IMG/VR virus record: IMGVR_UViG_2526164647_000013
Source: a virus
Lineage: Duplodnaviria > Heunggongvirae > Uroviricota > Caudoviricetes
Length of the DNA stretch: 10,117 nucleotides
Reading direction: 5' to 3' (one strand)
Below, in pieces: positions 1,415 through 8,883 of this stretch. The notes under the pieces are model-generated. The model saw nothing but the letters and a program-made list of their open reading frames with translations. It ran no database searches and had not been told where the DNA came from. Position 1 is the stretch's first letter, and each line of letters starts with the position of its first letter. A program made the position numbers and the translations under genes.

Positions 1415-2054
1415 TGACCCGTTATCTAAAACAGAATTCAATGCATTAATGGAAAGTGAAAAAGGACAGAGCCAAAACTTGTGGAAATTTGCCGTTTACT
1501 CCGGGCTTCGTCACGGGGAACTGGCAGCTCTGGCGTGGGAGGATGTGGATTTCGAGAAGGGAATTGTGAATGTCAGAAGAAACCTGACGATACTTGATAT
1601 GTTCGGTCCCCCAAAAACAAATGCCGGGATCCGGACGGTAACATTACTGCAGCCGGCTCTTGAAGCACTGAAGGAGCAATACAAACTGACCGGGCATCAT
1701 CGCAAAAGCGAAATCACTTTTTATCATCGGGAGTACGGCAGAACTGAAAAACAAAAACTGCATTTTGTTTTCATGCCCAGGGTGTGTAACGAAAAACAGA
1801 AACCTTATTACTCGGTAAGCAGTTTGGGTACAAGATGGAATGCAGCAGTAAAACGTGCTGGTATTCGCCGCCGTAATCCGTACCACACGCGACATACTTT
1901 TGCCTGCTGGCTGTTGACGGCAGGAGCGAACCCGGCATTTATAGCCAGCCAGATGGGGCATGAAACTGCGCAAATGGTGTATGAAATTTACGGTATGTGG
2001 ATTGATGACATGAACGACGAACAGATAGCCATGTTGAATGCGCGGTTATCGTAG
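1415..2054 (+). pseudogene. int: Phage-type tyrosine integrase, C-terminal catalytic-domain fragment
   Basis: Translation contains catalytic-core motifs of tyrosine recombinases: SGLRHGELAALAWEDVDF (box I Arg), HTRHTFACWLL (H-x-x-R) and GHETAQMVYEIYGMW (Tyr region). The frame is open from the IS1 boundary; about 120-140 codons between the N- and C-terminal fragments are missing. Stop at 2052-2054. Confidence 0.8.
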
Positions 2055-2256
2055 TTGCAAAGTTTGCCCCCAATTTGCCCCATTTAGTACCAGAGAACTG
2101 AAATAATGCAAGAAAATCAACAAATTACAAAGAAAGAACAATACGACCTGAACAAGTAAGGGCAAAAATCACAACTATCTGACTCATAAGTATTTTATTT
2201 ATTTTTCAATATGTTAAACATTATCAGCGACAACAATAAGCTACGATAACCCACTC

Positions 2257-2289
2257 TTTTTTGCCCCTTTTTTGCCCCTTTTTTGCCCC
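2257..2289 (+). repeat. Three perfect tandem copies of the 11-bp unit TTTTTTGCCCC, with further degenerate copies at 2063-2081 and 2300-2317
   Basis: Direct reading: TTTTTTGCCCC at 2257-2267, 2268-2278 and 2279-2289; TTTTGCCCC at 2300-2308; TTTTTGCC at 2310-2317; TTTGCCCCC and TTTGCCCC at 2063-2081 immediately after the int stop. All copies are in the same orientation. Confidence 0.9.
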
Positions 2290-2431
2290 TTATACAGCGT
2301 TTTGCCCCATTTTTGCCATCAACAATTTTCCTCATAAAGTCATTTCAAAGCCTAATAGCTGCTCTACTTTTTTCCTCAATATCATGTCGCCAGCAGGAAA
2401 CAACCTAATCCCTGTTTTAGGCCTCAAAGCT

Positions 2432-2450
2432 GTTAATGATAATTATTTTC
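2432..2450 (+). promoter_or_regulatory. Fur box-like operator upstream of sitA
   Basis: GTTAATGATAATTATTTTC matches the 19-bp Fur consensus GATAATGATAATCATTATC at 16 of 19 positions; lies about 100 bp upstream of the sitA start and overlaps the candidate -35. Confidence 0.6.
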
Positions 2451-2474
2451 ATTTTGTATAGGTTATGCTATAAA
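2446..2474 (+). promoter_or_regulatory. Candidate sigma70 promoter of sitABCD
   Basis: -35 TTTTCA (2446-2451), 17-bp spacer, -10 TATAAA (2469-2474), assigned by eye. The Fur-like box overlaps the -35 and the MntR-like box overlaps the -10 and downstream, a standard repressor arrangement. Confidence 0.4.
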
Positions 2475-2494
2475 ACATAGCCGTTGCTATGTTT
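2473..2494 (+). promoter_or_regulatory. MntR-like palindromic operator upstream of sitA
   Basis: Perfect inverted repeat AAACATAGC-CGTT-GCTATGTTT, which resembles the MntR operator half-sites as I recall them from enterobacterial mntH/sit promoters; overlaps the candidate -10 and start region. Confidence 0.65.
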
Positions 2495-2549
2495 GTTCTA
2501 ATTTTGCTCACTATAGGTACTAAATTATGCACTCAATAAAAAAGTAACC

Positions 2550-6166: not shown

Positions 6167-6175
6167 CAGCTTCTG

Positions 6176-6739
6176 TTATTCCACGATAAAATTCCTAACC
6201 GAATTCAAATCCTTCAGACTATTCAGCTCTTCCTTCAGCTCCCGCTGACGGCGATAAATCTCATCGTTGCGATCGACCTGCGCCTGCACCATTGCTGCCG
6301 CCAGTTCTTCCAGTTCCGGCATCGACAGTTTCACCTGCTGATTATCGGCATCGCTCCACGCCATATGTGTTTGTGCTGTGACAGATTTTGCCAGCATGAC
6401 TACCGGGGACAGGCGGCCCAGTGAGTCGGGACCAGCATTCCAGATACGACCGTTCCATTCAAACGTGAACAGCTTCGCCTCCTGTTCTGCGCGCCATGCT
6501 TCAATTTCCTGACGTCTGGCCTCTCTGGCCGCTTCCAGCATTTCTGGTGTCACAGTGAATGGGGCTATCTCACCCCATTTGCCGCTTTGCAGTTCCTGCC
6601 AGATTTGCTGACCCGTCGGAGCGACATCATCAGCGGTGGCTGTGTAGGGGACTGCCTGGTCCCTGTCGTCAAAAAAAACGTCACAGTCTACTGCGCCACT
6701 TTCGGTATAACGGGGATTAATGATTTTTTTAATTTCCAC
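6176..6739 (-). CDS. Phage tail-fibre chaperone / assembly-like protein (my tentative match to a DUF4376-like motif)
   Basis: ORF directly downstream of the tail-fibre gene. I prefer the GTG start at 6739 (Shine-Dalgarno GAGGA 6-7 nt upstream, overlapping the fibre stop) over the longer ORF start at 6799, which lies inside the fibre gene. Contains AWSDADNQQVKLSMPELEELAAAM, which fits a W-DADN...EL..L..M motif I associate with phage tail-fibre accessory proteins. Family assignment is from memory and unverified. Confidence 0.5.
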   Translation of the reverse strand: MEIKKIINPRYTESGAVDCDVFFDDRDQAVPYTATADDVAPTGQQIWQELQSGKWGEIAPFTVTPEMLEAAREARRQEIEAWRAEQEAKLFTFEWNGRIWNAGPDSLGRLSPVVMLAKSVTAQTHMAWSDADNQQVKLSMPELEELAAAMVQAQVDRNDEIYRRQRELKEELNSLKDLNSVRNFIVE

Positions 6740-6749
6740 GGTGCATTCC

Positions 6750-7939
6750 TCACGATGTGCGAATAAAAAGCCCGGGCATTGCGCCAGAGACATGAGCATC
6801 CGGCACCCCGGACAGGGCGCAATATGACCCCGGTAATGAATGCTCTGAACATCCCGTAATGAAAAATTGTGGGGATGCTATATACGTTCCGGTGGGAGTA
6901 CTGGGCACTGAAATCCCCACCGGTCCCAGTCGTGAGCCTCTGTATGACTGCCCCCTGACAAGTCTGATGACTTTATCACCGTCAGCTTCTCCCTGGTACG
7001 CAGCAATAATCAGCCCGCCAATGTCAGGGTCTCCCCATCTGTTGCGGACAGAGCTCGCCACGATTCTGTAAATAATATCTTCTGTGGTTATATTTATTTT
7101 CACCCAGTCAGTCAGTCTGGATATGGGCCAGTAGCGGTAGCGGGTGTGATAAATGGGGCCGTTAATGCCGTAAAAAGTAAGGGATTTGGCTCTGTACCGC
7201 GGTTCTGTTGTCTCAGGGCGTGCATCAGTCCACCGGATGCTGAGCACCCCTTCAAACCGTGTGTCGGGTATGATGATGCCGTAGGGGCCAGCAACGGAAT
7301 ATTCACCTGGCAGCGCATTCCTTACCCAGGCCAGGAAATCACTCTTAGTGTCAAAACGGATAACATCTTCAGGCAGAAAAGCACACCCAAAGCCGAATGC
7401 GCCGGGTATCGCCAGACGGCCTTTTGTCCGGTCGTAAATGTCGCTCTGTGCTTCCATCGTGGCCGCACTTTTCAGCCCCAGATTATCCCGGGACTTCTGT
7501 TGTGCCTTTTCGCCTGCTGCTGCGATTTCAGACAGATGGTTAGCCGTTTTCAGAGTGCCGGTCAGCGCAGCATCAATGTCATTTTTGGCCTGCTCTGCTG
7601 CGCCTGCGCCACCATTTCCTCAAAGCGTTTGACGACATCTGGTTTCAGGTCGCCCTCATCAGGAGCAATCAGAAAGTCATTCAGCGTACCGGGCTTTGAG
7701 TCCTCATATACAGCAATGTCGCCAACGTTGTACTCGTTGTGCCAGTCCTGTTTCAGATACACACCATATTTTCCAGTCCGCGCATGGAAACAGTATTCAC
7801 CATCGTTTCCTGTCATCACATCAGCAACAGTGTGCATCACCACTTCCGGGGTGTTTACCCGGGATTTCAGAATAATATGGTATCCGGACATGGAGATACC
7901 TGCGCCATCAGTCAGCGCACCTGATATCACTACAGACAT
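6750..7939 (-). pseudogene. stf: Side tail fibre (Stf-like) gene, frameshifted
   Basis: N-terminus MSVVISGALTDGAGIS...IAVYEDSKPGTLNDFL...VKRFEEMV matches the conserved N-terminal domain of lambdoid side tail fibres (lambda Stf: ...ISGVLKDG...ITVYEDSQPGTLNDFL...RFELMV). That frame stops at 7562; the continuation (AEQAKNDIDAALTG...MEAQSDIYDRTKG... to the stop at 6750) is in the -1 frame, consistent with a 1-nt deletion near 7600 in a GCGCAGG repeat context. Confidence 0.7.
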
Positions 7940-7962
7940 AGTTTTTCTCGCGATAAATTAAA

Positions 7963-8507
7963 TCAGGAAGAAATTTCCGGAGAAGCGGGCCATTCAATGG
8001 CGTTGTATGAGGTTTTATCAGTGATGACACTGAAATCCATCGCCTGCAGCGATTTCGCGTAAATGCGGTACGCTTTCAGTTTTTCCCGGTCTTCGTCGCT
8101 GATTAGCCCCAGCAACAGGTCTTCTTCCCATTCCCCTGTCCGGGCACTGACCTGAGCCAGAAGGGCATCACGCTCATCTTCCGCTTTGAGTCTGTAGTCA
8201 AAGACAAATTCATCATTGCGGTAAAACCAGTAACCCGGCGCGGTAATGCGGCGGTTGGCGGTAATATCAGGAACTTCAATAACACTGGCGTTACGGGGTT
8301 CAATGCCTGTCACATCCTTACCGACCCACACCACGCGACCGTCTCCGGTGTAAGTTATTTTAATTGTGTCCTGGCGAAATTCTTCAGCTCTTCATACCAG
8401 TTTTTTCCGTCTTCTGAAAAAAGCCAGGTGACCGAATATCGTTTTGTCATCTGATATTGTTCTGCTGTTTTCGGATTACCCGTAGTAATATTTTTTAAAT
8501 GCAACAT
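7963..8507 (-). pseudogene. tfa: Tail fibre assembly protein (Tfa, P2 gpG / lambda Tfa family), frameshifted
   Basis: From the ATG at 8507: [44 protein letters not shown], then a stop; the other frame continues [43 protein letters not shown]... to the stop at 7963. Both halves align with P2 gpG as I recall it ([24 protein letters not shown]...[22 protein letters not shown]...VVEVPDITSNRR). The junction AATTTCGCCAG is consistent with a 1-nt deletion (TTCCGC to TTCGC) near 8376. Confidence 0.75.
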
Positions 8508-8530
8508 TGTTAAATACTCGCTACGTTATA

Positions 8531-8883
8531 CTAGGTGCCATTAATCAGTTTTTGCAGTGGTCGGTAATACACACCGTCAACGTTATCCGCTGAGTTACGG
8601 CCGGTATCCGATATCGCCATCCCTGACAGCCCGTGTCCCGAAGGTGCGCAAAATCTCCACGAAACGGTGTTACTGCCGGGGCTGTAATACATTTCATGGC
8701 CATACCGTACATCCTGTACCCCCTCTGTTCGATATTTATAGCGGGCATCGAAGTTTCCGTAATTTAACGGAATTACCTGTCCGTTAACAGTGAACACTAT
8801 GCTGTTATCCGGGTTTCTCTGGCTGAAAAAATGCCAGCCTGAATCATCGCCAAGCTCTGCAACAACAGGCCTGGATGGATTAC
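8531..8883 (-). pseudogene. C-terminal fragment of a phage tail fibre gene, 5' end removed by the IS600-like element
   Basis: About 117 codons of open frame ending at a stop at 8531, 23 nt upstream of the tfa start (the fibre-then-tfa order of P2 H-G and lambda stf-tfa). The first five codons of the six-frame ORF (to 8899) lie inside the IS end. Sequence itself is not diagnostic; the call rests on synteny. Confidence 0.55.

Follow-up and report, generated by a model that had tools for sequence, protein, structure and literature searches.

The stretch analysed here (the window) comprises 10,117 nucleotides (nt) of the IMG/VR virus record IMGVR_UViG_2526164647_000013 and carries the metal-transport genes sitABCD between the remains of a phage integrase gene and a group of phage tail-fibre genes. 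A first-pass annotation had proposed that the sit genes are cargo in a defective lambdoid prophage, occupying a slot like the b region of phage lambda, between a convergent integrase and tail-fibre module. The content of the window fits this proposal in its main point, with sitABCD apparently a moron, or prophage cargo, in the accessory slot of a worn-down temperate phage. The part of the window from the left edge to the end of sitD is made up as follows (IS, insertion sequence; aa, amino acids; ORF, open reading frame; ABC, ATP-binding cassette).

1–300, + strand: 3' end of an IS3-family element (IS1203/IS629-like), which truncates xis; matches the 3' end of an IS1203 annotated in E. coli O111 at 97.7% identity.
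301–473, + strand: remnant of the excisionase gene xisR, aa 13–71 of 71; 94.9% identity by tblastn to XisR of the CFSAN029787 prophage.
475–646, + strand: N-terminal fragment of intR, aa 1–57; 98.2% identity to IntR by tblastn.
647–1414, − strand: IS1, 768 bp, a full-length match, with an associated deletion of intR codons 58–198.
1415–2054, + strand: C-terminal fragment of intR, aa 199–411, with the tyrosine recombinase catalytic domain; 99.5% identical to the 411-aa IntR.
2055–2129, unstranded: int-proximal arm of attP, with two TTTGCCCC repeats (2063, 2074); the same sequence as E. coli attL on its phage side.
2106–2159, + strand: phage-borne start of ttcA (ttcA'), ORF MQENQQITKKEQYDLNK and stop; matches aa 1–17 of the lysogen TtcA.
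2130–2155, unstranded: 26-bp att core AAGAAAGAACAATACGACCTGAACAA, at the same position and of the same length as the att annotated in phage Rac-SA53; inside the ttcA' ORF.
2156–2320, unstranded: sit-proximal arm of attP, with TTTGCCCC at 2260, 2271, 2282 and 2301; the same sequence as E. coli attR (uspF–sitA interval) on its phage side.
2330–5995, + strand: sit cassette (its own promoter region and sitABCD), common to phage 21 and other isolated coliphages; 98.1% identical to phage 21 over 3,667 nt.
2432–2450, unstranded: Fur-box-like site upstream of sitA; 16/19 matches to GATAATGATAATCATTATC, the best in the window.
2473–2494, unstranded: perfect palindrome AAACATAGC-CGTT-GCTATGTTT with 9-bp stems, MntR-box-like.
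2527–3440, + strand: sitA, periplasmic metal-binding protein; Pfam ZnuA, 8e-86.
3440–4267, + strand: sitB, ABC ATPase; Pfam ABC_tran, 9e-31, with matches to annotated E. coli sitB.
4264–5121, + strand: sitC, permease; Pfam ABC-3, 3.8e-83.
5118–5975, + strand: sitD, permease; Pfam ABC-3, 9.7e-76.

The integrase gene is transcribed rightward and ends at 2054, as first annotated, its ORF 1401–2054 (+) matching Pfam Phage_integrase at 4.6e-24. The integrase module begins to the left of the start given for it before (1415) and includes the xis remnant at 301–473 and the integrase N-terminus; the sequence match to phage starts at 301, and the xis gene called in near-identical chromosomes carries PF06806. 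Together these are the tyrosine recombinase and the upstream excisionase of a Rac-type module (IntR, integrating at ttcA). The integrase is split by IS1, with residues 58–198 deleted at the element according to tblastn, and XisR lacks its first 12 codons. Because intR and xisR are both disrupted, the Rac-type recombination module is non-functional in the window.

The non-coding stretch between int and sit (2055–2526) is AT-rich, with a GC content of 34.5%. When the window is aligned with the attL and attR of E. coli, the common form of the att core, at 2130–2155, comes out as AAGAAAGAACAATAC(A/G)ACCTGAACAA. The E. coli match to the integrase side, where intR is followed by ttcA (Rac attL), extends to position 2155 of the window, while the match to the sit side, where uspF is followed by sitA, starts at 2113. 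Since the left arm is the same as attL on its phage side, and the right arm the same as attR on its phage side, int and sit are joined by an intact phage attP, with P arm, core and P' arm, and not by an insertion sequence. The TTTGCCCC motif occurs six times in the 10-kb window, always beside the core, twice in the int arm and four times in the sit arm; these repeats are putative arm-type Int sites. Upon integration, the phage-borne ttcA' start would replace the N-terminus of the host TtcA.

Within the core, the window has G at position 2145, where every E. coli att site examined and most sister loci have A. The locus L011, identical to the window here, has the same variant core; L019 and L024 gave no core match in the search and may share the change. 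The segment 2254–2320 contains tandem 11-bp units (TTTTTTGCCCC), and their copy number varies among the window, sister Shigella-type chromosomes, E. coli attR and the plasmid pAPEC-O2-ColV.

The sit genes lie between the integrase and the tail fibres, in agreement with the first-pass annotation, and span 2527/2550–5975. Their order, a binding protein of the ZnuA/cluster A-I fold, an ATPase and two ABC-3 permeases, is that of the SitABCD importer, and they are 97–99% identical at the nt level to annotated sitA–D of E. coli genomes and phages; sitABCD is thus predicted to encode an Mn2+/Fe2+ ABC importer. The reading frames of sitB, sitC and sitD are intact, and so is that of sitA apart from a run of adenines at 2532–2544, which counts six in the window and seven in CP026772.1, with a 1-nt deletion at 2538. 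The canonical ATG of sitA at 2527 is thereby put out of frame and reaches a stop after 6 codons; sitA is open from the in-frame ATG at 2550, giving 296 aa instead of 304, and not all four sit frames are open from their canonical starts. This run is the single base by which CP026772.1 differs from the window in 9,358 nt, and the difference may be either a homopolymer sequencing or assembly error or a real slip mutation.

The palindrome at 2473–2494 resembles the MntR operator and may be an MntR site. The one terminator-like match upstream of sitA is this MntR-like palindrome; the counts of the scan were no higher than in shuffled sequences. The window contains no RNA family of Rfam at the gathering thresholds. 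For the Fur-box-like site at 2432–2450 there is a precedent, a Fur box having been reported upstream of phage-borne sit genes (Mathieu et al. 2020, PMC6969025).

To the right of sitD, the window continues with genes on the opposite strand and ends in insertion sequences.

6176–6799, − strand: DUF4376 gene, the last of the tail-fibre module, intact, 207 aa; Pfam DUF4376, 1.6e-15; 98.6% identical to the CFSAN029787 prophage protein.
6753–7939, − strand: lambda-Stf-type side-tail-fibre pseudogene (422 aa when intact), with a 79-nt deletion at about 7592–7601; tblastn gives two frames.
7966–8507, − strand: tail fibre assembly gene tfa (181 aa when intact), frameshifted at 8371; Pfam Caudo_TAP, 5e-22, on a 123-aa ORF.
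8513–8839, − strand: remainder of a fibre gene (410 aa when complete), of which the last 111 codons are left and the upstream part is missing; 70% identity by tblastn to aa 300–410 of the E. coli prophage protein.
8884–10117, − strand: IS3-family element (8884–9804) interrupted by a partial IS1 (9805–10117); Pfam rve/HTH_21, IS1 match, and multi-copy matches in related loci.

The strand and the end at 6176 of the leftward tail-fibre genes had been described correctly; the gene that ends there is the DUF4376 gene, and tfa lies upstream of stf. The phage genes have been broken by IS1, by IS3-family elements, by the 79-nt deletion and by a frameshift, while sitB–D are intact. The earlier description of decaying phage genes next to intact sit genes thus applies to int, xis, stf, tfa and the fibre gene on one side and to sitB–D on the other, and fails for the canonical start of sitA. 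Other near-identical chromosomes lack the 79-nt deletion and have a complete stf (422 aa, PF08400). The match to the E. coli prophage runs as far as 8782. The insertion sequences at 8884–10117 appear to have replaced phage morphogenesis genes: in the intact E. coli relative, morphogenesis and lysis genes stand at the position taken here by these elements and an unrelated integrase gene. That integrase gene lies beyond 10117, on the tail-fibre side; it codes for 534 aa (DUF6538 and Phage_integrase) and is accompanied by a gene with an ORF6N domain (locus L008, 1993–3597; locus L014, 3949–5553). The pair hints at the insertion of a further element into the prophage as it decayed.

The relative in question is the prophage of E. 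coli CFSAN029787 (NZ_CP011416.1, about 4,672,026–4,720,350), which is some 48 kb long, lies at ttcA/uspF and has the usual integrated form, int being at one end and sit at the other. Most of it is preserved; the annotation shows two genes with frameshifts, a recE that is truncated and an inserted IS2. From its sit end, the order is uspF, attR, sitABCD and, convergent with these, DUF4376, stf, tfa, fibre, baseplate, tail, head, terminase and lysis genes, followed by tRNAs, a Q-like gene and nin; towards the int end come replication and immunity genes, Rha, recE, gam, an AAA ATPase gene, xisR and intR, then attL and ttcA. The window shares with it xisR/intR, the att core and arms, sitABCD, DUF4376, stf and tfa at 93–99.7% nt identity. 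Positions 301–646 and 1413–2155 are 99.5–99.7% identical to its xis/int/attL end and positions 2113–7601 are 99.4% identical to its attR end; for the tfa region, the figure is 93.5%. The window differs in that the two ends are fused via the attP sequence and most of the genes are deleted.

Outside the window, the recE-gam-AAA and tRNA-Q-nin blocks of the CFSAN029787 prophage match those that flank the locus. The wider locus, to which we attach the presumptive label Shigella-type, reads Rha, kilR, recE, gam, AAA, xis, int, the attP sequence, sit, fibres, a deletion filled with insertion sequences together with the 534-aa integrase gene, tRNAs, Q-like and nin, and is colinear with a circular permutation of the CFSAN029787 prophage. 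Related chromosomes match the window at up to 99.99%; none of the complete E. coli genomes covers 80% of it or more. A Shigella flexneri-type genome is presumed on the strength of the IS-rich character of these chromosomes, the ipaH gene close to the locus in two of them and the literature.

Because both sides match one prophage at more than 99% and meet at a clean attP sequence, int, att, sit and the fibre genes belong to one phage type. The first-pass annotation had itself raised the contrary case, in which the integrase fragment and the fibre genes come from unrelated elements and were placed by IS-mediated rearrangement around sit genes native to neither. The window is indeed rich in insertion sequences (IS1 at 647–1414 and 9805–10117, IS3-family elements at 1–300 and 8884–9804), its type of genome is IS-rich and rearranged, and sit is carried by about 1,000 plasmids, those copies that were inspected lying near IS1 or IS3-family matches. 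None of these elements is in the int–sit or the sit–fibre interval, however, and the arms of the int–sit junction are the same as attL and attR of E. coli on their phage sides, with both sides of the window more than 99% identical to the single CFSAN029787 prophage. An origin from unrelated elements joined by insertion sequences is therefore hardly credible, and the comparison that was made found a single-prophage match and an att junction free of insertion sequences.

Phage 21 (OL657228.1) carries the same 3.67-kb sit cassette (window 2330–5995) at 98.1% nt identity, in the same orientation and the same slot. In its b region, int is followed by attP and, farther on, by sitABCD, which faces small genes, the side tail fibre gene and J on the opposite strand. 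It differs from the window in its integrase and attachment site (an icd fragment is annotated at attP), in having about 1.9 kb of other small genes between attP and sit, in its lambda-type J and stf, and in being intact and plaque-forming. Phage 21 was isolated in the 1950s, and its genome announcement is silent on sit. In many lambda-like gut phages, too, the cassette occupies the non-essential slot between the side tail fibre gene and attP/int. The cassette is found at 97–98% identity in at least 25 phage records, among them the isolated coliphages phage 21, ev207, 1H12 and Perceval. Carriage by infectious phages is thus observed for isolated coliphages; the element in the window is itself defective.

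The placement of the cargo in a b-region-like slot was borne out by phage 21 and likewise by the attR ends of the prophages of CFSAN029787 and of E. coli THO-008. THO-008 and a record named Salmonella phage SPF_0923 have sit in prophages of the lambda type, equipped with J, lom, stf and tfa, and in both it lies at the uspF end. Comparison of the int-to-tfa interval among related phages, which had been put forward as a check, shows that the slot is polymorphic even with the same type of integrase: it holds sit in CFSAN029787 and THO-008, is occupied by ydfK and a recombinase gene in E. coli Jnd12, and has no annotated gene in Rac-SA53. The last of these (KU052037.1) is like the window in its integrase (96.9% nt identity), in the position of the 26-bp att in the 5' end of ttcA and in having uspF at its tail-fibre end; it is unlike the window in that only about 300 bp, devoid of annotated genes, separate its last tail-fibre gene from att, and in its fibres, which are about 83% similar over 620 nt.

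Sit genes as phage cargo are already known from coliphages and from the Shigella sit island. They were found on 70% of infant-gut lambda phages (Mathieu et al. 2020, PMC6969025) and were listed as cargo at the tail end of a prophage of enteroaggregative E. coli 042 (Chaudhuri et al. 2010, PMC2808357). The Shigella flexneri pathogenicity island 'PAI sit' (Fisher et al. 2009), in the summary given by Desvaux et al. 2020 (PMC7545054), is like the window an island with sitABCD, IS elements and phage-like genes.

Copies of sit are far commoner on plasmids, 970 of which cover at least 80% of window positions 2055–6200, and this abundance might be taken to mean that sit came from a ColV-type plasmid or a chromosomal island, a plasmid-derived cassette having come to lie beside phage debris by chance. 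Chromosomal sit homologues without phage flanks do occur across the Enterobacterales, at 72–88% nt identity, and agree with such a source; what they share with the window is the coding region 2600–5982 only. The set of species-representative genomes contains no E. coli or Shigella copy, and SitA homologues in other genera are 66–88% identical, again without phage flanks. The closest operon outside E. coli and Shigella in that set is that of Phytobacter sp. V69 (locus L036, 2511–3395 and flanks), with 88.5% nt identity over 2607–5982 and no phage flanks; an operon like this may be the sort of chromosomal source that supplied the phage cassette.

Most of the plasmid copies share only 2312/2336–5982/5995 with the window. 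The copy on pAPEC-O2-ColV (NC_007675.1, 3958–7889) extends over 2012–5982 at 97.4% identity and, like the window, contains sitABCD preceded by the whole attP sequence and the final 43 nt of intR. Its setting is different: the plasmid is conjugative, of type IncF, and the copy has a toxin-antitoxin pair and aerobactin genes beside it and no tail-fibre genes. A masked run of N lies directly upstream of its intR end. Because this copy retains the end of intR and the full attP sequence, the direction of transfer would be from phage to plasmid, which suggests a phage segment in the attP form as the ancestor of the sit genes on plasmids; infectious phages, moreover, carry the cassette. A plasmid or island as the source of sit in the window is consequently very improbable. 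The int'-attP-sit arrangement may in turn be a shared historical marker: quite possibly, if a little short of probably, ColV sit and the Shigella island both go back to a ttcA-integrating phage captured in the attP form, in tandem or excised, so that the widespread plasmid sit would be phage-derived and the Shigella island would trace back to a double lysogen with two phages in tandem at ttcA.

In a prophage integrated in the ordinary way, int lies at one end and the tail fibres at the other, and the attP junction must accordingly go back either to tandem lysogeny or to a captured circle. For the same reason, the earlier reading of the convergence of int and tail fibres as a vegetative layout is right in that an attP sequence joins int and sit, and does not describe an integrated prophage. 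In a tandem pair, the int fragment would come from the neighbouring copy, and sit and the fibres from the other. Attachment junctions in the attP form are present in 38 of the 5,426 complete E. coli genomes (query spanning both arms), with sitA attached in seven of the 38. One instructive case is the native locus of E. coli H22, where uspF is followed by a divergent sitD-like remnant, a DUF1627 fragment, a 3' fragment of int, attP, sitABCD, a major facilitator superfamily gene and tail fibres; this order would be expected if, of a tandem pair, the member nearer to uspF had eroded.

The alternative to a tandem is a single excised and circularised phage that was recaptured elsewhere by homologous or IS-mediated recombination, leaving one permuted copy with attP intact. 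The colinearity of the locus with a circular permutation of one prophage, with no gene present twice within about 26 kb, would be expected of such a copy; pAPEC-O2-ColV, with its int 3' end, attP and sit, indicates that the segment moved in the attP form at least once; and among the insertion sites of PAI sit, the account in PMC7545054, a secondary source, lists aspS and yecN. At H22, on the other hand, int'-attP-sit is found at the native site, next to uspF, and remnants of another element lie on the uspF side, as a tandem predicts, and the breakpoint that a permuted copy should have is not seen. On balance, we lean towards tandem lysogeny followed by IS-mediated erosion for the window, and regard the recaptured circle as unlikely, though still as a serious contender.

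The remnants on the uspF side of H22 (NZ_CP120563.1, locus L035, 6860–9160) are a frameshifted sitD-like permease gene, 67–69% identical to sitD at the nt level, and the DUF1627 fragment; they suggest that an older element carrying a metal transporter was present at the same site. A further precedent for an attP-form junction is Jnd12 (NZ_CP095820.1, about 2,612,000–2,712,600), in which a complete Rac-like prophage ends in xisR-intR and such a junction and abuts a ydfK-recombinase-tfa-stf end. Jnd12 was rejected as a simple tandem pair of Rac-type prophages, the neighbour being a Qin-like prophage that ends at rspB and has a different integrase. A scan of IMG/VR for the exact attP-form junction returned no intact phage in vegetative order, only IS-ridden islands of the Shigella type and one junction of the Jnd12 type. 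The attP-form junction is a modest and possibly undescribed detail.

As a whole, the explanation that we consider highly probable is that of one or two eroded phages with sitABCD as a moron and an attP junction that most likely arose in tandem. The window would be part of a Shigella-type sit island, made of the eroded remains of one or two temperate phages. The ancestral phage would have been of the Rac-integrase type, integrating at the 5' end of ttcA and with a lambda-like gene order, and would have carried sitABCD as a self-contained unit with its own promoter region, in the slot between the last gene of the tail-fibre module and the attachment site. In the lysogen, metal limitation would presumably switch sit on independently of the phage genes, and the Mn and Fe thus supplied would probably benefit the host. 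Such a benefit is proposed as the reason why sit was retained while int, xis and the fibre genes were broken, and the pattern of decay and retention would fit selection on the cargo. The Shigella island is reportedly unstable yet retained in clinical isolates.

Several observations weigh against this explanation or parts of it. The lost canonical start of sitA, unless it is a read error, weakens the argument that selection keeps sit intact in the window. A consensus scan of 2000–6400 found no terminator-like site after sitD, and promoter-like matches in the same region were no commoner than in shuffled sequence. Base composition, which had been proposed as a check, is uninformative and does not set the cargo apart from the phage, with a GC content of 50.3% for sit, 50.2% for the rest of the prophage and 49.9% for the flanking chromosome. 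The search for att core repeats, also proposed, yielded the core at 2130–2155, and found no second core to bound the prophage within ±10 kb, nor uspF or ttcA in that range, within which the outer ends of the island are not reached; in loci with an E. coli-type core, there is one core per locus of about 20 kb. Finally, the CFSAN029787 prophage, the nearest intact relative, is annotated with baseplate J/gp47, a baseplate hub, a spike and DUF3383, and not with a lambda J tip. The term lambdoid suits the early and regulatory genes and the gene order, which in that prophage runs int-xis-recombination-immunity-replication-nin-Q-lysis-head-tail-fibre-cargo, with Q-like (DUF1133), Rha, recE and gam genes also flanking the locus of the window; otherwise it is only loosely apt.

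The principle of lysogenic conversion is documented, as is sit cargo, and the window may serve as a worked example of conversion followed by domestication, in which a metal importer that helps enteric pathogens under metal restriction by the host is kept while the phage decays. The attP-form junction provides a sequence marker for tracing sit between phages, Shigella chromosomes and ColV plasmids.

Two of the related chromosomes have an ipaH gene near the locus. In the sister loci L019 (5166–7685) and L025 (1463–3981), ipaH (LRR_TTSS and NEL domains) and a second DUF4376 gene converge at a distance of a few kb upstream from xis. Here a type III effector gene occupies the tail-fibre-adjacent cargo position of another prophage remnant.

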